Source of the DNA: Ignavibacterium sp.
Lineage (GTDB): Bacteria > Bacteroidota > Ignavibacteria > UBA10030
Length of the DNA stretch: 64,000 bases
NCBI GenBank assembly: GCA_039961715.1
Contig: JABRVW010000067.1
Coordinates: forward strand, 18,396 to 82,395
Reading direction: 5' to 3'
This document shows, piece after piece, positions 241 through 64,000 of the stretch. The number at the start of each line of letters is the position of its first letter. Within the stretch, counting starts at the first letter, position 1. Under the pieces are notes generated by a model. It did no database searches. It was given only the letters and a program-made list of their open reading frames with translations, and was not told the DNA's origin. The position numbers were made by a program, and so were the translations under genes.

Positions 241-1746
241 ATGGCAATGAGGGAATATAAGCTCTTTCTCAATGGTTCGTTTGTCGATGCGTCGTCAGGC
301 GCGACGTTCGAATCGATGAATCCGTTCGATCAATCCGTCGTTGCAAAGGTGGCCCGCGCAGGAGCCGAGGATGTGCGCAAAGCCGTTGCGGCGGCGCGGG
401 AGGCGTTTGACAAAGGTCCATGGCCGCGCATGTCTCCCCAGGAGCGCAGTGCACTGCTCAAGGCTGTCTCGGACAAAATCAACGAGCGTTCAAAAGATCT
501 TGTTGCTCTGGAGGTCATGGACTCGGGATCGACGGTTCGCAAGGCAAAGGAAGACATCTTTCTCTCCGCCCGGAGCATGAACTATTTCTCGAAGCTTGCC
601 GCGATGGATCACTCGGCACCCATCGAAGGACTTGGCAAGCCGGGATTCAGCCGCAATCTGCTTGTCCGGGAGCCGATTGGCGTCGTGGCGGCAATCATTC
701 CCTGGAATTTTCCGCTGAAGATGGCCGTCTGGAAACTTGGCCCTGCGCTTGCCGCGGGCAACACGGTGGTGCTCAAGCCGTCGGAGTTCACCCCCTGCAC
801 GGCAATGGAACTTGCATCAATTATTCACGAGGTCGGCTTCCCAAAAGGGGTTGTCAATGTCGTTCCCGGCTTCGGACCAGAGGCGGGCGAAGAGCTGGTC
901 AAGCATCCCGGAGTGGACAAGATCTCGTTCACCGGCTCGACCAGAGTGGGAAAACACATCATGAGTCTGGCAGCCGGACAACTGAAGAAGGTTACCCTGG
1001 AGTGCGGAGGCAAATCGGCCAACATCGTCCTCGACGACGCCGATCTCGACCTCGCGGTGGACGGCGCCATGTACGCGATCTTCTATCATCAGGGGCAATG
1101 TTGTGAGGCGGGCAGTCGATTGCTTCTCCCCAAGTCCATCGCGCCGGTGTTCATGGAGAAGCTGATCGCCAAGACGAGAAAGCTCACACTGGGTGACCCG
1201 TCCGATCCCGCGACAGACCTGGGTCCCCTGGTCTCAAAGGCGCAGCAAGACCGTGTGCTTGGGTACATTGAAGATGGAAAGCGTGAGGGAGCCAGGCTGG
1301 CGGTTGGCGGAGGAGCTCCGAAGGATGGATCGCTGGCAAGGGGATTCTTCGTTGAGCCCACCGTGTTCACGGGTGTTTCCAATACGATGAAGATTGCGCG
1401 CGAAGAGATCTTCGGACCCGTGCTGTCGGTCATTGAGTACGACTCGGATGACGAAGCTGTTGCGCTGGCGAACGATTCGTCGTACGGGCTTGGGGCCGGG
1501 GTGTGGTCGAAGAATGAGGACAGGGCGCGTTCCGTGGCAGATCGGCTGAGAGCGGGAACGGTGTGGATCAACGAATGGCACCTCATCAGCGAAAAAGCCC
1601 CCTTCGGTGGCTACAAGGAAAGCGGCATCGGACGCGAGTTCGGAGTGGAGGGGTTGTACGAATACATGGAAGCAAAACATCTGCATATCGACGAACTCGG
1701 CTCGCGGGAAAAGAAGACGTGGTACGATACAGTGGTACCGAAGTAG
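241..1746 (+). CDS. NAD(P)-dependent aldehyde dehydrogenase
   Basis: 501 aa. ALDH motifs present: VLKPSEFTP, FTGSTRVGK, LECGGKSA (catalytic Glu region), GQCCEAGSR (catalytic Cys). AG-rich RBS lies just upstream of the ATG. Confidence 0.95.
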   Translation: MAMREYKLFLNGSFVDASSGATFESMNPFDQSVVAKVARAGAEDVRKAVAAAREAFDKGPWPRMSPQERSALLKAVSDKINERSKDLVALEVMDSGSTVRKAKEDIFLSARSMNYFSKLAAMDHSAPIEGLGKPGFSRNLLVREPIGVVAAIIPWNFPLKMAVWKLGPALAAGNTVVLKPSEFTPCTAMELASIIHEVGFPKGVVNVVPGFGPEAGEELVKHPGVDKISFTGSTRVGKHIMSLAAGQLKKVTLECGGKSANIVLDDADLDLAVDGAMYAIFYHQGQCCEAGSRLLLPKSIAPVFMEKLIAKTRKLTLGDPSDPATDLGPLVSKAQQDRVLGYIEDGKREGARLAVGGGAPKDGSLARGFFVEPTVFTGVSNTMKIAREEIFGPVLSVIEYDSDDEAVALANDSSYGLGAGVWSKNEDRARSVADRLRAGTVWINEWHLISEKAPFGGYKESGIGREFGVEGLYEYMEAKHLHIDELGSREKKTWYDTVVPK

Positions 1747-1753
1747 AGGATGG

Positions 1754-1790
1754 GGATTTTCCATTGTCGATTTTCGATTGCCCATTGATC
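1754..1790. repeat. GATTT-core low-complexity intergenic element (copy a)
   Basis: GGATTTTCCATTGTCGATTTTCGATTGCCCATTGATC sits directly after the ALDH stop. By hand alignment about 25 of 34 positions match copy b at 3604-3637. Shared core is CGATTTTC[G/A]ATTG. Confidence 0.6.
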
Positions 1791-1885
1791 GGACGAATCA
1801 TGGCATGCGCGATTCACGATAAACACCTAAAAAAATGCTTCCACCGTTCTTTTAATGTTTCCTTTTGAATTGCTGATTCCCTTCC

Positions 1886-3592
1886 ATGGACATTAAAAAC
1901 AACACCGTACTCGTTCTCGGCGGTTGGGGCCTTGTCGGCTCCGCTGTCGTCCGCCAGCTGATGGACGAACAGCCCAGGCGCATCATTGTCACGTCGCTCC
2001 TTGAACGCGAGGCCCGTCAGGCCGTTGACGAGTTCCGCAAGGAGTATCCTCGCGCCCCCAAGGGACAGTTCGTCCCCTGGTGGGGCAATGTTTTCATGAG
2101 AAACGAGTTCAAGGACAAGAGCCGCGAGGAGCTTCTTGAGAACGATGCAACGCGCCAGAAGCTCATCGACGACCTCCTCGACGAGCTCTCTCCCGCGGTC
2201 ATCCAGCGGTCCGCCATTTACCACCTTCTCGAAAAACATCGTCCTGAGATCGTCGTGGATTGCATCAATTCCGCCACTGCCATCGCCTACCAGGACCTGT
2301 TCCAGGCGTCACGGGGAGTTCGAAAGGCGATCAGAGAGGTGCGGTCCGGGAAGCAGGCTGACCTGATCGAAGCCACGGAGCGTCTCATAGCCACCCAGTA
2401 CATCCCCCAGCTCATCCGGCACGTTCAACTCCTCTACCGGTCGATGCAGATGGTGGGCACGCGCATCTACGTCAAGATTGGCACCAGCGGAACGGGCGGT
2501 ATGGGACTGAACATTCCGTACACCCATAGCGAAGAGCGGCCCTCCAGCGTCCTTCTCAGCAAATCAGCCGTGGCGGGCGCGCATACTCTGTTGTTGTTCC
2601 TCATGGGCCGAACGCCGGACGCTCCGATTACCAAGGAGATCAAACCCGCTGCCGCCATTGCCTGGAAGCGGATCGGGTTTGGAGAGATCCGCAAGCGCGG
2701 CAAGCTCATCGCACTTGAAGACTGTCCGCCGGAACAGGCCGTGCGGCTGTCCAAGACTCTGAAGCTTCAGGAGGAACATGTCGGGAAGAAGACCACTGCC
2801 CCCCTCCGATCGGTGTTCATCGACACGGGGGAAAACGGCATTTTTTCGCGGGGAGAATTCGAGGCCATCGCCACTCCGGGACAGATGGAGTTTGTGACTC
2901 CCGAAGAAATTGCGGAGAGCGTGGTCTTTGAAATTCTCGGCGGAAACACGGGGCATGACATCATCAACGCCCTCGACAACGCCACGCTGAACCCGACGTA
3001 CCGGGCGGGCTTCCTCTTCGAAAGCGCGGTCCGTGAAATGAAACGTCTGGAGTCTGTCTACAAGACACGCAGCGTGGCTTTCGAGATCCTCGGTCCACCC
3101 AGGCTTTCCAAGCTCCTGTACGAGGCGCATCTTCTCGAAACGGCCTACGGCTCGATGAAGGCGGTTCTCAAGGTGTCCCCGAAGAACCTTTCAACCGCGC
3201 TTGAGCGGCTCATTCGGGAACAGGCCGACCTTCGCCAGAGGATCATCTCCATCGGAATCCCGGTCCTTCTGTCGGACGGCACGACTCTCCTGCGCGGCTC
3301 AGAAATCAAGATTCCGCCCTTCAGGGGTGAAAACGAGCTTCCCGTCACGGAGCAATCGATCAACGCGTGGGCCCATGACGGATGGGTGGATTTACGCCCG
3401 AAGAACATGGAGCGATGGAAAAAGAGATTTGAGCTGATTATCGCGGCAGCGGAGGAGATCCCTGAAGGCGACTCATCGTCGCGCTTTCAGCGGACAAAGC
3501 AGTACTGGAACAACTTCGACCAGATCGAGCCGGGAAAGCTGGTGGGATGGATCTTCTCGGAAGAGGAAAAGGGAAAGAGGATGAAAGCGTGA
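1886..3592 (+). CDS. Hypothetical large NAD(P)-binding Rossmann-fold protein, function unknown
   Basis: 568-aa ORF. N-terminal VLVLGGWGLVGSAV is a dinucleotide-binding-type glycine motif. A glycine-rich KIGTSGTGGMGLNIPY segment follows. I recognise no specific family. Confidence 0.7.
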   Translation: MDIKNNTVLVLGGWGLVGSAVVRQLMDEQPRRIIVTSLLEREARQAVDEFRKEYPRAPKGQFVPWWGNVFMRNEFKDKSREELLENDATRQKLIDDLLDELSPAVIQRSAIYHLLEKHRPEIVVDCINSATAIAYQDLFQASRGVRKAIREVRSGKQADLIEATERLIATQYIPQLIRHVQLLYRSMQMVGTRIYVKIGTSGTGGMGLNIPYTHSEERPSSVLLSKSAVAGAHTLLLFLMGRTPDAPITKEIKPAAAIAWKRIGFGEIRKRGKLIALEDCPPEQAVRLSKTLKLQEEHVGKKTTAPLRSVFIDTGENGIFSRGEFEAIATPGQMEFVTPEEIAESVVFEILGGNTGHDIINALDNATLNPTYRAGFLFESAVREMKRLESVYKTRSVAFEILGPPRLSKLLYEAHLLETAYGSMKAVLKVSPKNLSTALERLIREQADLRQRIISIGIPVLLSDGTTLLRGSEIKIPPFRGENELPVTEQSINAWAHDGWVDLRPKNMERWKKRFELIIAAAEEIPEGDSSSRFQRTKQYWNNFDQIEPGKLVGWIFSEEEKGKRMKA

Positions 3593-3603
3593 TGGAAGCA
3601 GGG

Positions 3604-3638
3604 TGATTTCCGGTTTCCGATTTTCAATTGGCGATTGT
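3604..3638. repeat. GATTT-core low-complexity intergenic element (copy b)
   Basis: TGATTTCCGGTTTCCGATTTTCAATTGGCGATTGTC lies between the convergent stops at 3592 and 3659, in the same orientation as copy a. Confidence 0.6.
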
Positions 3639-3658
3639 CAAGGGGGGAAGATCGATAA

Positions 3659-4888
3659 TCACTCGTATCGCAGCGCCTCAACCGGATCCAGATTCGCCGC
3701 CTTCCACGCCGGATACACGCCAAAGACCAGTCCGATCAGCGCGCACAGCGCAAAGCCTATAAACGCCCAGTCCCACGGAATGGTCGGGGGCACCTCGAAC
3801 ATGAGGGCAACCAGGTTCCCCATCACGATTCCCACCAGGATGCCGATGATGCCGCCAAGCTGGCAGAGCACAACGGCTTCGGTGATAAACTGACTGAGAA
3901 TACTGCGTTTCTGTGCTCCGATGGCTTTCCGGATGCCAATTTCCCTCGTTCGTTCTGTCACCGATACAAGCATGATGTTCATGATTCCGACTCCCGCCGC
4001 CACAAGCGAAATGAAGCTGATGAAGCCCACGCCGAGTTTCACATACATCGTGAATTCGTTGAACGTGGAGATCATCGAATCGTTGGAGAAGATCGAAAAG
4101 TCGTCCTCCTTCCCAGGCGGCACACGGCGGATGGTCCGGAGATGGAACCGCGCTTCCTCGAGGCAGTCGTCGTAAACCCCGGCGCTCTTCGCCTTGACCA
4201 TGACATGGATACTACGGTCTTTTCCATACAGCGCGAGGAAGGTCGTCATGGGAATGACAACCCGGTTGTCACTATCACCGCCCAGGCTGGCGCCTTTCGG
4301 CTCAAACGTGCCGATCACGGTGAACCGATGTTGACCGACGCGAATCTCCTTGCCGACGGCATCGGCATGCCCCAGGGGAAACAGCTTCTTGACCACCTCG
4401 TCCCCGAGGATGGCGACGTAGCGCGAATACTCGAGATCGGCCGATGAGAGGCTCCGTCCCTCGCGGATCGTCCAGTTATTTGTCAGGATCCCCTCCGGTT
4501 CCTCACCAGCCACACTGACATTCGGATTGGTTTTCATCGACCCGTACTGAATGGTCTGTCCACCCCACCAGTCTTCGAGGGCCACATACTGAGCGAGCGT
4601 CATCTTTTCCTTCAGCCTGAGTCCCTGGTCGTACGTGATGTCCTTTCTCTGACGTGCCTTCCGCCATTCCGCGTGGCTTGCCATGACAGGCATCTTCTGG
4701 ATCTGAAATGTGTGCGCGCCAAGGTTGCTCAATCCTGACTCGATGCTGTTTTGCAGGACCCGGACAGCCGTCATGACCCCGATGATCGAAAACACGCCCA
4801 CGACGATACCGAGGAGAGTAAGGGCTGAACGGAGCTTGTTGGCCCGGATCGCCGCAAGGGCAATGCTTATGATTTCGGAGAATTGCAT
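3659..4888 (-). CDS. ABC transporter permease, FtsX/MacB-type
   Basis: 409 aa. An N-terminal TM helix, a large periplasmic domain and a C-terminal FtsX 3-TM bundle ending DPVEALRYE, typical of MacB/LolCE-type permeases. Confidence 0.9.
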   Translation of the reverse strand: MQFSEIISIALAAIRANKLRSALTLLGIVVGVFSIIGVMTAVRVLQNSIESGLSNLGAHTFQIQKMPVMASHAEWRKARQRKDITYDQGLRLKEKMTLAQYVALEDWWGGQTIQYGSMKTNPNVSVAGEEPEGILTNNWTIREGRSLSSADLEYSRYVAILGDEVVKKLFPLGHADAVGKEIRVGQHRFTVIGTFEPKGASLGGDSDNRVVIPMTTFLALYGKDRSIHVMVKAKSAGVYDDCLEEARFHLRTIRRVPPGKEDDFSIFSNDSMISTFNEFTMYVKLGVGFISFISLVAAGVGIMNIMLVSVTERTREIGIRKAIGAQKRSILSQFITEAVVLCQLGGIIGILVGIVMGNLVALMFEVPPTIPWDWAFIGFALCALIGLVFGVYPAWKAANLDPVEALRYE

Positions 4889-4891
4889 AGG

Positions 4892-6121
4892 TTACTCGTA
4901 ACGAAGCGCATCAACGGGATCGAGCCGCGACGCCCTGTATGCTGGCAGGAATCCGGAAACCACGCCGACAAACAGAGAGATCAGGAGGGCGATGACGACG
5001 ATGCTGACAGGCATCGCCGTCGGGAGGATCTGGTCGATGATCAGGCTGAGAGGAAATGCGATAACCAGGCCGATCAGGCCGCCAATCAGACAAATCACGG
5101 CGGATTCCAGCAAGAACTGAATGAGGATTGCGCGTTTCGGCGCACCAATCGCCTTCCTGATGCCGATCTCTTTTGTACGCTCGGTGACCGAAACAAACAT
5201 GATGTTCATGATCCCAATTCCCCCAACGAAAAGCGCCAGCCCTGTAATGAACAGCCCCACGGCGGCGATGACTCCGCCAATGGCATTGAACGTCTCAATG
5301 AGAAATTCCTGCTGGTTGATCGCAAAATCATCCTGCGCCCCCGGTTCCACTTTCCGTGCTTTGCGGAGAATGCCTCGGACTTCCTCCCGTGTTTCATCCA
5401 CATTTTCAAGTGATGCCGCCCTTACCCAGATCTGAATGCCCCCGCGCCGGGACATAAACTCCGCAAAAAACCGGTTGATGGGTACGTACACCCTGTTATC
5501 GAAGCTTTCCAGGCCCAGGAAGCTTCCCTGCTTCTCGAGCACTCCGACGACCCGGTACGGATGATTCCCCACCTTGATGACCTTACCGACGGGAAATTCG
5601 TTGGGAAAAAGTGATTCGGCGACTTCGGAGCCCAGCACGCACACAGGCCGTCCTCCGTTTGCTTCCATGGCGGTCAGAAACCGTCCCAAGTCAACATTCG
5701 CGTTGGTCGTCGTGATGAAATCCGCGTCCGTCCCGATCACAATCACGCCTTCGACGAGCTTCCCGCCGTACGTAACGTTCCGCATCGTCCCCATGATCGG
5801 CGAGACGCTCGCCACCGTGGTGGCGTCGTCTTCGATCGCCCTGGCATGCTGAATGAGAAGGTCCTTCCGGTTTCTGATCTCCCACCAATTCGCTCCTCCG
5901 CCCCACGGCCACTTTTGCACATAGAGCACATCGGCGCCAATGACGGCGACGGATCGATTGAATGCCTGATTGAGGCCCTCGATAGCCGTGCCCATCAGCG
6001 TCACAGACACGATCCCGATCACGATTCCCAGCGTGGTCAGAGCCGAGCGCATTTTGTTTGCCCGGATTGCCCCGAAGGCGATCGCGAGACCTTCTTTCAG
6101 TTCATCGAGCCACCAGCTCAT
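4892..6121 (-). CDS. ABC transporter permease, FtsX/MacB-type (tandem paralogue)
   Basis: 409 aa with the same architecture and the same C-terminal DPVDALRYE. Lies 3 nt from the neighbouring genes. Confidence 0.9.
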   Translation of the reverse strand: MSWWLDELKEGLAIAFGAIRANKMRSALTTLGIVIGIVSVTLMGTAIEGLNQAFNRSVAVIGADVLYVQKWPWGGGANWWEIRNRKDLLIQHARAIEDDATTVASVSPIMGTMRNVTYGGKLVEGVIVIGTDADFITTTNANVDLGRFLTAMEANGGRPVCVLGSEVAESLFPNEFPVGKVIKVGNHPYRVVGVLEKQGSFLGLESFDNRVYVPINRFFAEFMSRRGGIQIWVRAASLENVDETREEVRGILRKARKVEPGAQDDFAINQQEFLIETFNAIGGVIAAVGLFITGLALFVGGIGIMNIMFVSVTERTKEIGIRKAIGAPKRAILIQFLLESAVICLIGGLIGLVIAFPLSLIIDQILPTAMPVSIVVIALLISLFVGVVSGFLPAYRASRLDPVDALRYE

Positions 6122-6123
6122 GA

Positions 6124-6852
6124 TCAGACGCTCGTCAGCGTGGGATGGGTGATGACCTTGCGGTCCTTCACAAGCTCATCGGTTTCGATGTGGCCGTCCT
6201 TGATACGGACGCGGCGATGGGCGTGGGCTGCAATATCTTCTTCATGCGTGACCAGGATGATCGTATTGCCCTGGCGGTGGAGAATGTCGAACAGCGCCAT
6301 GATCTCCTCGCCGGTCTTGCTGTCGAGGTTTCCCGTGGGCTCGTCCGCCAGCAAAATCGACGGCTTGGTCACGAGAGCTCTGGCAATGGCCACGCGCTGT
6401 CGTTGTCCGCCCGAGAGCTCGTTTGGCTTGTGATGGGCACGGTCTCCGAGGCCAACCTGCTCGATGGCCTCCATCGCCAGCTTCTTGCGGTCTGCCGAAT
6501 TCACACCTCCGTAGATCAGCGGAAGCTCGACATTGTGCAGAACGTTGGACCGTGCGAGGAGGTTGAATGTCTGGAACACAAACCCGATCTCCTTGTTCCT
6601 GATCCTCGCAAGTTGGTTGTCATTCATCTCACTGACATTCGTGTCGTTCAGCTCATACAGCCCTGAAGTCGGCGTGTCCAGACAGCCGATGATGTTCATC
6701 AGGGTTGACTTGCCCGAACCGGACGGGCCCATAATGGCCACGTACTCATTGCGGTTGATGTTCAGGGACACGCCGCGAAGGGCATGCACCTCTTCCGCTC
6801 CCATCTGATAGACCTTCGTAATATCAACCAAACGAATAACGGGGGACGCCAT
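6124..6852 (-). CDS. ABC transporter ATP-binding protein (MacB/LolD-like)
   Basis: Walker [13 protein letters not shown] signature LSGGQRQR, Walker [10 protein letters not shown]-loop VTHE. Confidence 0.95.
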
Positions 6853-6890
6853 ACGTTGTTCTCCTTTTTCCGCCGCGGCGGGTTCGACAA

Positions 6891-8153
6891 TTACTGTTGG
6901 GCCAGGGTTCCCGCTGGACGTCGGGCGGCCCGATTCTCCACTTTTACTTTCGCACCGTTCTCAAGCTCTCTGTTGATCGCCTTGAAGGGTCCCGACACAA
7001 CCTCTTTTCCTTCAAGGTCCCCTGAAGTGATCTCTACGTGCGTATCACTGGTCAGGCCGCGATTGACAACAATCGTCTTTGCCACGCCGTCCTCCACGAC
7101 AAAGACCACCTCATCCAGCTTCTGTTCTTCTCTCGCCACCCCGCCTGCAATTCTCACAGAACCCTCCCCTTCCTCTCCTTCTTCCTTCTTCTCCATCTTG
7201 GGGGCACGAACAGTGACAGACTGAATGGGGACTGCAAGGACATTGTGATGAGTCTCGGTCTCAATATCCGCCGTCATGGACATGCCAGGCCTCAACTCGA
7301 CGCCCGCAGGCGTCTTCAGGAGAATCCGAACCTCGAAATTGATGACCTGGTCCTGGGTTCCGAGCCCGGTGGTCTTCGCGGTGTTGGCAATCTGCGACAC
7401 GACGCCGATGAATGTGCTGTCCGAATACGCGTCCACTTTGACGCGGGCGGTGTCGCCCAGGCTGACCAGGACGATGTCGTTTTCCCCCACGTCCACGCGC
7501 GCTTCCATCCGGGCGAGATCGGCTACGGTCATGATCTCGGTTCCCTGCGTAAACGTGCTTCCGCTCACCCGTTCCCCAACCTCCCGGAGGAGCTGGCTGA
7601 CGACGCCGTCCATGGGTGAATAGATTGTCGTCTTTGCAAGAGTTTCCCGGGATTCCTTGAGGGAGGCTTGGGCTTGCGCATGCGATGCTTTCGCGCTCTG
7701 GTACGTCGCCCGGGCGATGTCCATCTCCGCATCGGAAATAAGCTTCTTCTCATACAGCTCGCTGGCCCGTTTGAACTCGGCCTCGGCCCTCACGAGATTC
7801 GATTCGGCAATGATCAGCGAAGCTTGCGACCGCTCATACTGCGCCTGATAGGCGTCGGGCTTGATGCGCACGAGGAGCTGTCCCTTCTTCACGCGATCTC
7901 CTTCCCGAACGGGAAGATCCACGATTTCCCCGCTCACCTCCGCGTTGATCTTCACCTGTGTCACGGGCTGGATCTTTCCGGTCGCCGTGACGATCTGGGT
8001 GATGGTTCTCCGGTCAACTTTCTCGGTCTGAACAGTGATGATGTTTTCCCGGCCGCTGCCCATGATCACGAGGGCAACAAGCGTGATGACAAGCGCCCCG
8101 AGGATCAGAAAGACGATCAGTTTCTTTCTGGAGTTCTTTTTTCCATTAGCCAT
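6891..8153 (-). CDS. Efflux periplasmic adaptor (HlyD/MacA family membrane fusion protein)
   Basis: 420 aa. N-terminal TM anchor, coiled-coil hairpin region and lipoyl / beta-barrel segments. Positioned between the TolC-like gene and the ABC genes. Confidence 0.9.
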
Positions 8154-8180
8154 TGAAATGGGTCCTTTGTGCGCGGCGTC

Positions 8181-9527
8181 TCAGTATCCCCGTTCGCCCA
8201 CGGCGAATTCGAGGTTTCTGCTTGCGATGATGAAGTTGTAGTTTGCATTTACGTTGCTGGCCTGAGCATTGACATAGTTCGCGTTCGCGATATAGAGATC
8301 CAGCAATGTCCCTGCTCCCAGGTTATACCGCTCCTCTGCAACGCGCCGGTCCTGCTCCGCCGAGATCAGGCTCTTTTGCGTCGCCTCCAGCTGTTTGCGC
8401 GCCGCCTCCAGATCCAGAACGGCCTTCTTCACCTCGACGCGAACGTCCCGGGTTTTCTGCTCGAGCTGGAGATCCGCGTTGCGCCGCGAAATGTAGGCGT
8501 TCTGGATCCTTGCCAGAGAGCCGAAGATTTCCGGAAGCTGCCAGCTGAGCGTCAAGCCAACGTTGGACGCCCTGTTCCCCCAACTCGTGGCCGGCACGAA
8601 CTCCTGGGCATTCGTGGAGAATCCTCCGTTCACGCTCACGGTGGGGTAGTAAAAGCTCCATGCCCGCGTGATCCCGTTGTCAGCCAGGTCAACTCCCGCC
8701 ATGGTGCTCTTGTAATCCGGGCGAGAATCCAGCGCGCGCCGGGTCAGATCCTCGAACGGAAGCAGGGCTTCATATCCTGTGCTTTGCTGTTTGATCTGCT
8801 CATCGATCGAAGGATCGGCAATCACATACTCGGTGTTCGGATCGAGGGCAAGAAGATTCAAAAGGTCGGCCTTCGATTTGTCGTACGTGTTCTGCGCGCT
8901 GATCAGGTTCACCTCATCGTTGGCGACAACGGATTGCTGCCGGTAGACATCGGCAAGGGAGGCCGCACCGACCTTGTTGGATTCTGTAATCCGCTCCAAC
9001 TGCCGCCGGTCGCGCTTCAGGTTCTCCTCCGCCACCTTGACCAATTGCTCGTTCCGCAGAACGTTCAGATATGCGCTTTGCACGAGGAAGGCCGTCTGCT
9101 GCCGCGTCCGGTGGTACTGAAAGACCGCCTGATCCTCAGTTGTGAGCGCAGAGCTCAATGATGCTTCGCGGTTGAAGCCGTCAAACACCGTGTAGGTGAG
9201 CCCGAATCCGGTTCTATAGGTGTTGTAGTAGGTCTCCGTGCGCTGAGTCTGGAAAGGAATTCCCCCAATGCTTTGAATAGTCGGGGGCGAGCTGATGCCG
9301 GTGCGATTAAAGCTGGCGCCTGCATAGAGCTGTGGAATGTATGATCCGTAGGCGGACGTTACGCTATTCCCGGCGGATTCCACGTTGTTCTCCGCGATCC
9401 TCACGCTGGTGTTTTGCTCCAGTGCAATCCTCAACGCGTCGTCAAGGCGGAGCACCTTCTGTGTTTCCTGAGCGCCGGCGAGACCTGCCCAGCACACGAC
9501 CATGACTGCAACAAACACTTTTTTCAT
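8181..9527 (-). CDS. tolC: TolC family outer-membrane efflux protein
   Basis: Start re-picked to ATG at 9527 (MKKVFVAVMVVCWAGLAGAQE signal peptide). Shows the two-repeat TolC-type sequence. First gene of the efflux operon. Confidence 0.85.
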   Translation of the reverse strand: MKKVFVAVMVVCWAGLAGAQETQKVLRLDDALRIALEQNTSVRIAENNVESAGNSVTSAYGSYIPQLYAGASFNRTGISSPPTIQSIGGIPFQTQRTETYYNTYRTGFGLTYTVFDGFNREASLSSALTTEDQAVFQYHRTRQQTAFLVQSAYLNVLRNEQLVKVAEENLKRDRRQLERITESNKVGAASLADVYRQQSVVANDEVNLISAQNTYDKSKADLLNLLALDPNTEYVIADPSIDEQIKQQSTGYEALLPFEDLTRRALDSRPDYKSTMAGVDLADNGITRAWSFYYPTVSVNGGFSTNAQEFVPATSWGNRASNVGLTLSWQLPEIFGSLARIQNAYISRRNADLQLEQKTRDVRVEVKKAVLDLEAARKQLEATQKSLISAEQDRRVAEERYNLGAGTLLDLYIANANYVNAQASNVNANYNFIIASRNLEFAVGERGY

Positions 9528-9720
9528 CGAACACCCTCTCCTTGAAATTGAGTACCCGGGGGAAAAGATCAGTCCTTCGGCTGCGGAAATAAAAACTCTA
9601 TGTAGTAAACGTGAAACCGGAAGCAAAGTTTCATCAGAATGCCAAAAAGTCGTTGATTCTCTGCCTCTTGGGGATCCCCGCATTAGACTCCCCCGGATGG
9701 CAAAAAGTTTCGCTCTTTGT

Positions 9721-60661: not shown

Positions 60662-61578
60662 TCTCTGGTTCCTCCAACAGCCAACGCTTCCCTCACCCAT
60701 CGCCCTTCCTCGTGTGCCTTCTTCCGCGCGGCGATGCGCTCTTTGTTCATCGGTCCGTCGCCGTTGACCACGCGTTTCAGCTCCTCCCAGTCGGGAGGCG
60801 TAAACTTGTAATGTCCGGTTGCTTCGTCGTACCGGCATTCCGGATCGGGCACATCAAGTCCGAGGGCGCGGATTTGCGGAACGATATGGTCCACGAATTC
60901 CTGGCGCACCTGATCGTTGGTCTTGGTCTTGATCCGCCATCTCATGGCGCGCGCCGTGTGCTCAGACATCGAATCCGGCGGACCGGACATCATGAGCGTG
61001 GGGTACCACCAGCGGTTGATGGCATCCTGTGCCATGGCTTTCTGTTCCGGCGTTCCTTTGGCCAAGGCCACCACGGCGTCATAGCCTTGCTTGATGTGGA
61101 AGGACTCTTCGTAGCAGATGCGTTTCATGGCGCGCGCGTACGGACCATAGGAACCCTGCGCGAGCATGCTCTGGTTGATCACCGCGGCGGTATCCACGAG
61201 CCATCCGATCACGCCCACATCGGCCCACGTGGGTGTGGGATAGTTGAAGACGTTGGAGTATTTGGCCTTTCCGGACAACAGTTCCTCCATCATCTCTTCG
61301 CGGGTCTTTCCCAGCGTTTCCGCTGCGCGATAGAGCAGTTGTCCGTGCCCCGCCTCGTCCTGCACCTTGGCGATCAGCGTGAGCTTTCGTCTGAATCCCG
61401 GCGCATAGGGAATCCATTTGCCTTCCGGCAGTTGTCCCACGATCTCGCTGTGGGCATGCTGGCCGATCATGCGAATGAGGTTCTTTCGGTATTCTTCCGG
61501 CATCCAGTCGCCGGGCTCCACCTTGTCGCCTCTGGCTACGCGGGCCTCGAATTCGGCAAGTTTCTGCTCATCGGTCAT
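60613..61578 (-). CDS. paaA: Phenylacetyl-CoA epoxidase catalytic subunit PaaA (di-iron, ferritin-like)
   Basis: The ATG at 61578 ([14 protein letters not shown]...[28 protein letters not shown]) aligns with the E. coli PaaA N-terminus as I recall it. The last 15 or so codons lie in the repeat. Confidence 0.93.
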
Positions 61579-61670
61579 TCTGCCACCGTTTGTTGATTCC
61601 ACATTCACTTGTATAAAGATAACATTTTTCCGCTATCGATGAAACACATCTTGACCGGTGCTGAAGCCGA

Positions 61671-61819
61671 TATTCGATGAGAGTTGTTTGGAGATTGTTC
61701 ATTGGTAATTGAAAGCTGTTTGAGATTTGGGATTTCGAACTTGGGCCTTTCTCTCGGACCTTGATTCCTTGGATATTGGGATTTGTTCAGCATTTTGTGT
61801 TTGGAACCTGGATTTTTTT
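61671..61819. repeat. T/G-rich degenerate TTGG/GATTT repeat arm (left)
   Basis: Contains ATTTGGGATTTCGAACTTGG (61725-61744). Ends GGAACCTGG + A + 7 T (61803-61819). Confidence 0.7.
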
Positions 61820-62020
61820 GGGCGTTCCCCTTCGTCCGCCATCCGGGGTAGAGCAATGAGGCGGACTCAGGGTCGGTGCCCTACGGGGTCCGTTTCACTT
61901 CCGTGCTCCCTGATCATAGTGATGGGATAGTTGGTCGCACCGGCTCGCCGAAGGCTCGCCGCCCTTCGGGCACCTAACGCGCGAAACGTCACCGTTCGGT
62001 GTAGTCGTCCGGTCGACCGG
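61820..62020. other. GC-rich hairpin-dense core: candidate structured RNA or small inserted element (strand unknown)
   Basis: Hairpins: GTCCGCC/GGCGGAC (61834-61840 with 61860-61866), TCAGGG/CCCTGA (61867-61872 with 61908-61913), GCCC-TTC-GGGC (61961-61971), CACC-GTTC-GGTG (61990-62001), and the palindrome CCGGTCGACCGG (62009-62020). Direct repeat GGCTCGCC GAA GGCTCGCC (61942-61960). No convincing ORF. Confidence 0.3.
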
Positions 62021-62107
62021 CTTGGAATTAGGATTTTCCTTTCCTCCCTTGCCTGCATTTGGTCTTTGGAAATTGGAACTTATTTGGGATTTGGAACTTG
62101 GTTTTTT
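62021..62107. repeat. T/G-rich degenerate TTGG/GATTT repeat arm (right)
   Basis: Contains ATTTGGGATTTGGAACTTGG (62082-62101), 19/20 identical to the left-arm copy. Ends GGAACTTGG + 6 T. Confidence 0.7.
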
Positions 62108-62283
62108 CCTCCCCCCTTCCCACCTCATTCGGGAGTTTGCGTTCACAATTCGTTATTCGGCATTGTTTGGTCTATGCTATCACCTCCGTTTGCATTTTTG
62201 CCTCTCCTCCCCTACCTTCCCTTGCCAGCCCATGTCCCAACCCGGGATGTCCGGAAGAAAGCACACAAATCTGAGGCTCTGGA

Positions 62284-62967
62284 ATGACAGCCAACACGAT
62301 CCAGGCACGACAACTGTTGTTTGCCGCGCAAGTGATTCTGGCTGGTGTGATTCTTTCAGGGCCGGTTGCTGTCGCCGTCGTTGAATTCCTCGCCCCACAG
62401 CCCGCCTGGCAGGATGCAACCACCCTCATCAGCCACTACTCCTGGATCCAGTCGTCGCCGTACGTGTTCGGTTTTCTGATCGCCGTCGGGTTTCTGTTTC
62501 TGATGTCCGTGCTTGTTGATGTGGCATTGGATGCTCACCGGCCACTTGCCCGCGCGGCGCTGGCCTTCACGGCCGTCTCCGCGTCCTTGATCTTCTTCAA
62601 CTACACACTGCAAACCGCATTCGTCCCTCTCTGGCTTCACCGTTCTCCTTCAGCAGTTTCCATGGTAACCATGGCCAATCCTGACTCCCTCGGATGGTCG
62701 CTTGAGATGTACGGCTACGGCCTTCTCGGCATCGCCACGGCATGCGCGGCTCCCGTTTTCGAGCCGCAGGGACGGCGGCGACTGATCCGGCTGTTCCTGA
62801 TCCTGAACTGCATACTGAGCGTCATCGGTGCGGTCCTGGTTCCGATCATTCCGGGCTGGGTGCTGACGCCATGGGGCATGGTCGCCGGCGCGTTCTGGAA
62901 CATCTTGATCGCGGTCACCATGATCATGATCATGGTTGAATTCAGGCAACAGCATACAACCGGATAA
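62284..62967 (+). CDS. Hypothetical polytopic membrane protein
   Basis: 227 aa with about six hydrophobic helices. I recognise no family. Confidence 0.6.
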   Translation: MTANTIQARQLLFAAQVILAGVILSGPVAVAVVEFLAPQPAWQDATTLISHYSWIQSSPYVFGFLIAVGFLFLMSVLVDVALDAHRPLARAALAFTAVSASLIFFNYTLQTAFVPLWLHRSPSAVSMVTMANPDSLGWSLEMYGYGLLGIATACAAPVFEPQGRRRLIRLFLILNCILSVIGAVLVPIIPGWVLTPWGMVAGAFWNILIAVTMIMIMVEFRQQHTTG

Positions 62968-63196
62968 CAAGTGGAATATACCATGTCCAAACATCCCATT
63001 TTTACGGATGGAGAACGTTGCGGATCCGGTGATGCGGAAGATATGGTATCTGGACAAACTGCTCAATGAGCTGACGAAGGGGAATACATTCGAGAAGATT
63101 ATGAGACAGGATCGGGTCAAGCAATAGATAGGACCCTCGATTCGGAGCATCGGTGAAAGTGTCTCCTTGTTTTCAGACATCATAATGGGGGGTTGT

Positions 63197-64000
63197 ATGA
63201 AGAAAAAGCGGGGGTTATTCGAAGTGTTCAATGAGGAATTGCGGTTACGGAACTACAGTCCGAAGACCATCAAGGCGTACGCAAGCAATCTGAGAGCCTT
63301 TGTCCGACACTTTTCTCCGCGTCATCCCCGGGAATTGACCGGGGAGGACATCAGGCGTTATTTACTCTACTTGATTGCAGAGAAGAAACATTCCTCGGGA
63401 ACGGTAAATCAGGTTTATAATTCGCTGAAGTTTCTTTACGAGGGTTTGTATGATCGGGAATTCATGTTCGAGAGACTTCCGCGGCCCTTCGGGGAGCAAA
63501 AACTTCCGGATGTTCTTAGCTATGAGGAGGTTTTGAGGATTCTCCGGCAGGTGGTCAATCTCAAGCATCGGATCATGCTGATGCTTGCCTATGCGGCCGG
63601 GTTGCGTGTAGGGGAACTGGTTCAATTGAAGGTTGAGGATCTGGACCCCGAGCGCGGTCTGATACATGTCAGAGGCGGAAAGGGAAGAAAGGATCGGTAC
63701 ACAATTCTGCCGAAGATCATTCTGCCGCTGTTACATGAATATGTCATGGAATATCGCATAGGACCATCGGGTTGGCTATTCCCTTCGGGTTGGAAGGCAT
63801 CACGACACCTGGCGATCAGGAGCATTCAGGCGGTTTTTGAAGAAGCGGTCAAGAGTGCAGGAATTCAGAAGCGGGCAACGATGCACACATTAAGGCACTC
63901 GTTCGCGACGCATTTGCTTGAGAGCGGGACGGATTTGAGGTACATTCAGGAGCTTTTGGGGCATCAGAGTTCGCGGACCACCGAGATCTACACGCACGTG
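63197..64000 (+). CDS. Tyrosine-type site-specific recombinase/integrase (3' end outside window)
   Basis: Not in the ORF track because it runs off the window. ATG at 63197. N-terminal SAM-like core-binding domain (LRLRNYSPKTIKAYASNLRAFVRHF). Catalytic residues: AGLRVGEL (Arg), HTLRHSFATHLL (His-x-x-Arg), LLGH, and EIYTHV (Tyr) at the very edge. Confidence 0.85.
   Translation, partial: MKKKRGLFEVFNEELRLRNYSPKTIKAYASNLRAFVRHFSPRHPRELTGEDIRRYLLYLIAEKKHSSGTVNQVYNSLKFLYEGLYDREFMFERLPRPFGEQKLPDVLSYEEVLRILRQVVNLKHRIMLMLAYAAGLRVGELVQLKVEDLDPERGLIHVRGGKGRKDRYTILPKIILPLLHEYVMEYRIGPSGWLFPSGWKASRHLAIRSIQAVFEEAVKSAGIQKRATMHTLRHSFATHLLESGTDLRYIQELLGHQSSRTTEIYTHV

Follow-up and report, generated by a model that had tools for sequence, protein, structure and literature searches.

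The window analysed here is a stretch of 64,000 nt from Ignavibacterium sp. (assembly GCA_039961715.1, contig JABRVW010000067.1), in which a 705-nt gap between the start codon of paaA (PF05138; 61578, minus strand) and the ATG at 62284 of a 227-aa open reading frame (ORF) holds a structured core of 162 nt (61820-61981). By transitive sequence homology this core is Flavo-1 in the original sense of that family, a diverged member that the Rfam model misses. We consider it probable that the core is a lone copy of a Flavo-1 repeat, forming a three-way junction as a single strand, and that it belongs with small non-autonomous elements of the miniature inverted-repeat transposable element (MITE) or repetitive extragenic palindromic (REP) kind, with no dedicated role in paa. 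The core has homologues and a covarying structure, its family is multi-copy and patchily distributed, copies are indifferent to their neighbours, and they are gained and lost at orthologous loci. Copy number, neighbours, orientation, absence from viral contigs, presence/absence and transcription, taken together, argue for a small non-autonomous element and not for a dedicated gene. For the window, the practical outcome is that the gap holds neither a paa regulator nor a missed gene.

The limits of the element are set by the alignment of relatives, in which the conserved unit runs from GGGCGTTCCCC to CCTAACGC. An earlier note on this DNA had described a core of 61820-62020; a conserved core does exist, but it ends at 61981, since neither the arms on either side nor the terminal CCGGTCGACCGG palindrome showed conservation in the aligned relatives. 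The remainder is a tail of two short palindromes, CACCGTTCGGTG and CCGGTCGACCGG (61982-62020, plus strand). The sharp difference in composition that the note reported is borne out, with a GC content of 0.59-0.64 across 61800-62000 against 0.39-0.45 in the arms and about 0.40 in the flanks, and the GGCTCGCC-GAA-GGCTCGCC direct repeat and the CCGGTCGACCGG palindrome are both present. The core is assigned to the minus strand on the Rfam orientation together with weak strand signals; it folds on either strand. Its closing helix P1 pairs GCGTT (61822-61826) with AACGC (61976-61980). Hairpin P2 (61828-61872) corresponds to a first inverted repeat (61828-61840/61860-61872) and consists of an outer CCC/GGG stem, a 3x3 internal loop (TTC-TCA), an inner GTCCGCC...GGCGGAC stem and a 19-nt terminal loop. 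The P3 domain (61875-61974) corresponds to a second inverted repeat (61875-61887/61962-61974), with a GGTGCCC/GGGCACC stem, a 3x3 loop (TAC-TTC), a GGG/CCC stem and a branched distal part made up of a conserved strand, CCGTTTCACTTCC (61890-61902), a GTGC...GCAC hairpin (61903-61940) and a second hairpin, CGGCTCGCC-GAA-GGCTCGCCG (61941-61961). Minimum free energy folding of the window copy alone gave P1, P2 and P3 again whichever strand was used, and for RNA as well as DNA. Single-sequence folding z-scores were unremarkable (-1.7 to +0.15), so the earlier description of the core as hairpin-dense holds for the two long inverted repeats and does not extend to an exceptional folding energy.

BLAST against 40 related genomes gave matches in three. 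In two of them, members of the window's own family, the match covers 61866-61980 (83% and 78% identity); in the third, from a different family of the same order, it covers 61818-61916 (70%). These homologues, at 70-83% identity, are in G004, G002 and G031, where G002 is a congener of the window's genome (G000). A covariance model, R1, was built from the window copy and three Ignavibacteria relatives. Within the window's family R1 matched 6 of 86 genomes, with 1-3 copies each, and 76 relatives were found with it overall. A two-gap pattern scan of a collection of species genomes returned at least 120 stretches, and R1 confirmed 66 among the matches listed, which come from Flavobacteriia, Chitinophagaceae, Bacteroidales, Parabacteroides, Fibrobacter, Treponema, Leptospira, Ignavibacteriota and Chitinivibrionales. 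The window copy itself differs from the strict pattern by one base of gap length and is missed by it, so the tally of 5/401 genomes for the phylum is a lower bound, as are all of the pattern-based tallies.

When 137 distinct copies were parsed by their anchors, a common layout emerged: GG-GCGUU (P1), one free base, CCC...GGG (P2), YC, GG...CC (P3), U and AACGC (P1). P2 varies from 17 to 144 nt and P3 from 29 to 166 nt, and in both the first few pairs tend to be G-C and to lead into a symmetric 3x3 loop, read as UNC/UNC on the window plus strand and as GNA/GNA on the minus. The branched interior of P3 ('type B') is common to the window copy and to copies from Treponema, Fibrobacter, Leptospira and Parabacteroides. 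Covariation was measured in an alignment of fixed-length rows taken from the anchored helix ends (A6; 123 rows x 60 columns), from which 13 rows had been removed by eye as near-duplicates or because a helix boundary had visibly been placed wrongly by the anchor pattern. Standard pairs fill 86.2% of the A6 cells compared with 70.5% in shuffled alignments, and the covariation score is 0.358 compared with 0.099 in shuffles and 0.07-0.12 with slid partners; none of 500 shuffles reached the observed value in either measure. Two-sided changes occur in thirteen pairs, including six of the eight tested pairs of P2, and P3 pairs covary too. The invariance of P1 is not independent evidence because the search pattern demanded it. 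Covariation among relatives, which the earlier note had named as a check, is thus found. That the structure arose by chance or is the remnant of a decayed gene, the note's own fallback, is hardly credible: the unexceptional folding energy of the single sequence would fit it, but compensatory changes and conservation across several phyla do not, and no ORF in the gap has a family match.

The identification with Flavo-1 rests on these relatives. The Rfam scan for which the earlier note had asked left the core itself unmatched: RF01705 (gathering threshold 42 bits) did not match it at gathering or at E<=10 (61400-62500), and returned no match in the whole of the window's genome. In a scan of 18 related loci, RF01705 did match the P3 arm of six R1-confirmed copies (L059, L032, L028, L087, L097 and L070) at 45-62 bits, on the strand opposite to the window-plus reading; the R1 E-values of the same six range from 3e-7 to 6e-4. 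At E<=10 the Rfam model also misses a branched-type copy from Parabacteroides. The published seed alignment of Flavo-1 contains rows of the form GCGUUAGGGAU...AGCCCGACC, and one seed row has GAGCGAUAGCG, the reverse complement of CGCUAUCGCUC, which is the conserved strand of the branched P3 type (Weinberg et al. 2010, Genome Biol 11:R31, PMC2864571). On its minus strand the window copy reads GCGUUAGGUGCCC...GGGCACCGACCC, with the seed signature parts GCGUUAGG and CCGACCC retained and the stem between them covarying. Its 3x3 loop is GAA/GUA on that strand (61882-61884 with 61965-61967), at a loop position that is conserved in relatives, and the core thus has the long hairpin with purine-rich internal loops by which Flavo-1 is recognised. 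Since RF01705 matches R1-confirmed relatives and the 2010 seed already holds this type of sequence, the core can be taken as a diverged family member.

In several respects the window copy departs from the family as first described. Its relatives and Flavo-1 are both intergenic and multi-copy, and both occur in Bacteroidota and Spirochaetes, whereas the Rfam model is one long hairpin of 76 positions and the copies studied here add P2 and the closing helix P1. The long arm of the window copy is branched, while typical Flavobacterium copies have a U6/A6 hairpin. Twenty high-scoring Flavo-1 copies from one Flavobacterium genome proved to be single hairpins without P1 and P2, so the three-way junction is a sub-architecture that is not universal in Flavo-1. 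The window's host is an Ignavibacteria metagenome-assembled genome (MAG), which lies beyond the range given in 2010, when the family was reported from Flavobacteria, other Bacteroidetes and Spirochaetes and judged not to be cis-regulatory (PMC2864571).

The distribution of copies is that of a repeat. RF01705 copy numbers in five genomes were at least 150 in a Flavobacterium (G102), 77 in a Bacteroidales MAG (G104), 6 in Riemerella, 0 in Fibrobacter intestinalis and 0 in the window's genome. All-against-all BLASTP of the ORFs flanking 76 loci gave no common neighbour family beyond local synteny, and the orientation of flanking genes is unbiased (upstream 30 on the same and 39 on the opposite strand, downstream 33 and 32). 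The pattern had no match in viral contigs. The copies closest to that of the window do not share a context either: the one in G002 is placed between two hydrolase genes, and the one in G004 follows a lipocalin gene.

Presence and absence at orthologous sites, a hallmark of MITEs, were found at three loci between G000 and G002. The paaA locus is filled in G000 and empty in G002, where paaA is 95% identical, has another upstream neighbour, and loses similarity to the window about 70 nt upstream of its start. Conversely, the hydrolase pair is separated in G002 by a 378-nt spacer with the element and a TTGGATTTGGAAT-type left flank, and in G000 by a short, empty spacer; exact insertion boundaries were not obtained from this empty G000:C166 site, as the two spacers do not align. 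At the third locus G002 has a second copy and G000 an unrelated insert with a Y1 transposase. In a Bacteroidales MAG the junction GAATT|AGCAAAGCGC was found both with and without a core. Among the explanations that the earlier note had offered for the gap, a small non-autonomous element in a repeat tract is, in its essentials, the one that fits best, given the multi-copy family and the gain and loss at the orthologous loci of congeners. In the insert at the third locus (G000:C100:9800-10750), the Y1 transposase (weak PF01797 match) has a hairpin, CGCTGTCATGGACCACTCCATGACAGCG, on both sides together with a duplicated GAATTGTGGCTCACGCAAACTT, and the insert looks like an IS200/RAYT-type insertion.

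As a working model, the single strand would form a junction with a 5-bp closing helix (GCGUU/AACGC) and two arms, in each of which 3-7 pairs, mostly G-C, lead to a 3x3 loop and then to variable distal parts. A predicted protein would recognise this junction on single-stranded nucleic acid and copy the element into intergenic DNA, and individual copies would keep their fold because recognition depends on it. Several observations weigh against a mobile element. PF01797 (Y1/RAYT) is absent from the two highest-copy genomes, G102 and G104; no target-site duplication was seen around the core, either in the window or where the Bacteroidales MAG has the junction both filled and empty; and the terminal inverted repeat is only 5 bp long (GCGTT/AACGC), although it is often lengthened by pairing between a T-run and an A-run. 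The core is a single copy in the window's genome, where no other copy of core or arms was found, and so shows no sign of activity here; multiple copies, the sign of a mobile element proposed in the earlier note, are found for the family in other genomes and not in this one. Three Fibrobacter species carry the element at one syntenic locus beside uvrB, so it can be stably inherited. Relative to G002, all of the sequence beyond about 61650, up to the contig end, is variable, so the core may have come in together with other DNA. Finally, the conservation of core nucleotides across phyla and a mild strand asymmetry would fit a functional RNA equally well.

Comparison with known repeats places the family near two groups. 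REP sequences, the bacterial interspersed mosaic elements (BIMEs) built from them and REPINs are elements of Proteobacteria mobilised by RAYT (Y1 HUH) transposases. Like these, the window family consists of short structured intergenic repeats in tens to hundreds of copies, indifferent to orientation, with hairpins kept by compensatory change. Unlike them, it has no GTAG-type head, lacks Y1 in its two highest-copy genomes, forms a three-way junction in place of a simple palindrome, and conserves its sequence across phyla. The second group comprises bacterial MITEs and modular repeats such as the Correia elements of Neisseria and the BOX elements of Streptococcus pneumoniae. These too are small, non-coding and modular, with insertion polymorphism between close relatives, and in the window family it is P2 and distal P3 that vary in length and architecture; the differences are its 5-bp terminal inverted repeat, the lack of any target-site duplication seen, and the lack of any parent insertion sequence found.

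Two minor observations concern the ends of the element. In L013, L079 and L091 the 3' end CCTAACGC is followed 4 nt on (7 nt in L021) by an inverted copy, GCGTTAGG, and the two form a short palindrome that may be what is left of a second copy in tail-to-tail arrangement, or else a preferred target. In two Ignavibacteria genomes (L012 1693-1772 and L014 1720-1830) a full copy of the element is followed immediately by a tandem repeat of its 3' part.

Flavo-1 is among the most numerous 'sRNA' (small RNA) families in Rfam. That the family extends to Ignavibacteria, Fibrobacter, Leptospira and Chitinivibrionales in forms which the Rfam model misses, that many members have a larger three-way-junction architecture, and that copies are gained and lost between sister species argue for annotating them as repeat elements and not as regulatory RNAs. 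A defined junction structure also offers a usable bait for the protein that recognises it. Going further, we put forward tentatively the idea, possible but doubtful, that Flavo-1 is not an sRNA but the visible half of a cross-phylum, structure-specific mobile family, whose junction with GNA/GNA loops would be read on the single strand by a non-Y1 enzyme and which would spread through the Fibrobacteres-Chlorobi-Bacteroidetes (FCB) group and spirochaetes, seeding or targeting heptamer microsatellites.

The alternative that deserves most discussion is a genuine non-coding RNA gene, transcribed from the minus strand in the Rfam orientation and acting in trans or as a protein-binding scaffold through the junction and GNA/GNA loops. 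We regard this as rather unlikely, although the strong covariation and the conservation of junction nucleotides across phyla both speak for it, as do the purine-purine internal loops. The GNA/GNA motif is compatible with tandem sheared G.A pairs. Helix pairs read on the minus strand give 63 G.U and 36 A.C, with 253 R.R and 58 Y.Y mismatches, whereas the plus-strand reading gives 36 G.U and 63 A.C, with 253 Y.Y and 58 R.R; this G.U/A.C asymmetry is only 1.75 to 1, among related sequences that are not independent. The folding z-score is slightly better on the minus strand (-1.56 compared with +0.15). We therefore read the strand signal as modest and as weakly favouring the minus strand. Some copies are followed, in the opposite (plus-type) orientation, by hairpins resembling intrinsic terminators, which suggests that at least some copies lie within transcripts, and a long-read study of Leptospira lists Flavo-1 among unannotated transcribed regions (bioRxiv 10.1101/2023.03.29.534852). 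Against an RNA gene stand a copy number ranging from 0 to at least 150 per genome, the absence of an orientation preference and the presence/absence differences at orthologous loci. A scan of the gap for sigma-70 promoters and intrinsic terminators found neither, FCB promoters being outside the coverage of that scan. In the transcriptome of Flavobacterium psychrophilum, Flavo-1 hits lie sense or antisense to transcribed regions, and many lie outside them (PMC9723704). As for the unannotated structured RNA suggested in the earlier note, its conserved, covarying structure and its kinship to an Rfam 'sRNA' motif hold, while action as an RNA is putative.

In the Rfam orientation the core lies upstream of paaA and on its strand, about 240 nt from the start codon. 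This would fit another suggestion of the earlier note, a long 5' leader or riboswitch-like element for the operon, here read from the minus strand. We consider such a leader very improbable because the 95%-identical paaA orthologue of G002 lacks the element and keeps only the proximal 60-70 nt with a promoter-like box. No other copy of the family lies beside paa genes, downstream genes differ at every locus, and orientation is unbiased. A riboswitch or other cis-regulatory leader was rejected for the family as a whole as well, there being no shared neighbour family at the 76 loci and a downstream gene on the same strand at 33 and on the opposite strand at 32. The region proximal to paaA (61579-61650, minus strand) carries the box AAAAATGTTATCTTTATACAA in the minus-strand reading and is the sole part of the gap that can still be aligned with the G002 paaA upstream region, synteny stopping at about 61650. 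Conserved between G000 and G002 directly upstream of paaA is the box AAAAATGTTATCTT(T/A)A(T/A)ACAA (61605-61630, minus strand), which is probably the paa promoter and resembles the TAnnTTTG-type -7 element of Bacteroidota.

Elsewhere the gap is poor in recognisable features. Six ORFs of 67-120 aa within it have no Pfam match at E<=0.1, in agreement with the earlier statement that it lacks a credible ORF. ARAGORN found no tRNA or tmRNA, and Rfam gave only chance snoRNA and miRNA matches, at gathering across the whole window and at E<=10 on 61400-62500. A C/T-rich spacer (62111-62283) leads up to the 227-aa ORF, and nothing was recognised in it apart from a weak likeness of 21 nt to the start of P2 (D4, 71%). 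On this basis we considered and rejected a decayed second copy of the core in tandem beyond the right arm, as the likeness is confined to those 21 nt and stringent local alignment returns only the 20-mer shared by the arms. The 227-aa ORF itself (62284-62967) has no Pfam or NCBIfam match, and of the four genomes searched only G002 has a relative, a gene with 38% identity that lies at a different locus.

The arms on either side of the core are degenerate GGNNNTT heptamer arrays in the same orientation. The left arm (61651-61819, plus strand; repeat families D1, D2 and D5) ends in GGAACCTGG and a T-run and contains 9 GGNNNTT units where 1.9 are expected from composition, four of them in 7-nt phase with GGGCGTT, the first heptamer of the core. 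The right arm (62021-62110, plus strand; families D1 and D2, with an 18-nt period in Tandem Repeats Finder) ends in GGAACTTGG and a T-run and has 7 units against 0.8 expected, with two in-phase runs of three. The two arms share a 20-mer (61725-61744 and 62082-62101) that is identical at 19/20 positions. A repeat search also returned a 50-nt family in three copies (61702-61751, 61769-61818 and 62059-62108) and a 16-nt family, TTGGAAC(C/T)TGG plus a T-run, whose copies include 61801-61816 and 62091-62106. The same-orientation arms, the shared 20-mer with one mismatch and the common GGAAC[C/T]TGG with T-run are therefore as first described.

Across the family, period-7 tandem repeats of at least three copies account for 5.5% of the intergenic bases that lie up to 150 nt from a core and for 1.9% of other intergenic bases at the same loci; in the same comparison, periods of 5, 6, 8 and 9 were not enriched near cores. 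With a period-7 tract at only 13 of 129 loci, the element is not defined by having such arms. The arms are heptanucleotide microsatellites; either the element would insert into tracts of this kind, or its stable structure would promote slippage in adjacent DNA. Tandemly repeated heptanucleotides, the STRR (short tandemly repeated repetitive) sequences, are reportedly found in heterocystous cyanobacteria. The window arms resemble these in being tandem, degenerate 7-nt units in intergenic DNA, with similar tracts elsewhere in the genome and in other FCB genomes, and differ from them in unit sequence and phylum and in that tracts of the window type are enriched about 3-fold beside a structured repeat. 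Far from the core, GGTTATT/GGTTGTT tracts and their complements occur in the window's genome at C9:59095, C19:3-100, C34:23214 and 60671, C54:892, C153:1172 and C212:12410. Heptamer tracts are also found in the Bacteroidales MAG and beside canonical Flavo-1 hairpins, and such microsatellites seem to be common between the genes of FCB genomes in general, this one included. In the Bacteroidales MAG Kf353_bin105 (L130 2480-2830; L032; L109; L136), intergenic DNA is built of modules of about 90 nt with three types of heptamer (GAATGTA/GAATTTA, AATTGTC/AATTGTT and GAATTAC), and the tandem modules occur with or without a Flavo-1-type core at their head.

Because an integron-like array begins downstream, the core could also be viewed as an attI- or attC-like folded recombination site used by the tyrosine recombinase at 63167-64093. 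It lies 1.2 kb upstream of this integron-type integrase and its cassettes, is a folded single-strand site with internal loops and GTT and AAC ends as in attC, and a similar integrase is found within 3 kb of the core at 3 of the 76 loci. Yet the end motifs read GTT...AAC on either strand, the reverse of the RYYYAAC...GTTRRRY of attC, and this opposite order argues that the core is not an attC site. The array's own attC sites, 1.5 kb away, have their ends in the canonical order and are other sequences, GC(N)TAAC...GTTAG(S)C, of roughly 120-280 nt, and the core is not arrayed as they are. The remaining 73 loci have no such integrase nearby, and the closest copies (G002 and G004) sit in the hydrolase and lipocalin contexts described above. 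A role as a recombination site is accordingly very unlikely, and a diverged Flavo-1 repeat copy is still the reading we prefer. The array itself occupies 63167-64000 of the window and continues in L145 (G000:C67:79900-89598) at 1663-9699. Its recombinase scores 228.6 bits with TIGR02249, below the cut-off, and 224.7 bits with NF040815, above the cut-off, integron-integrase models giving the best scores. It is co-oriented with the cassettes and not divergent from them, and a GTTAGCC site comes next. The cassettes encode Nmad3, AbiJ, a GIY-YIG nuclease, a metallo-beta-lactamase-fold protein and unknowns, with long attC-like sites between them.

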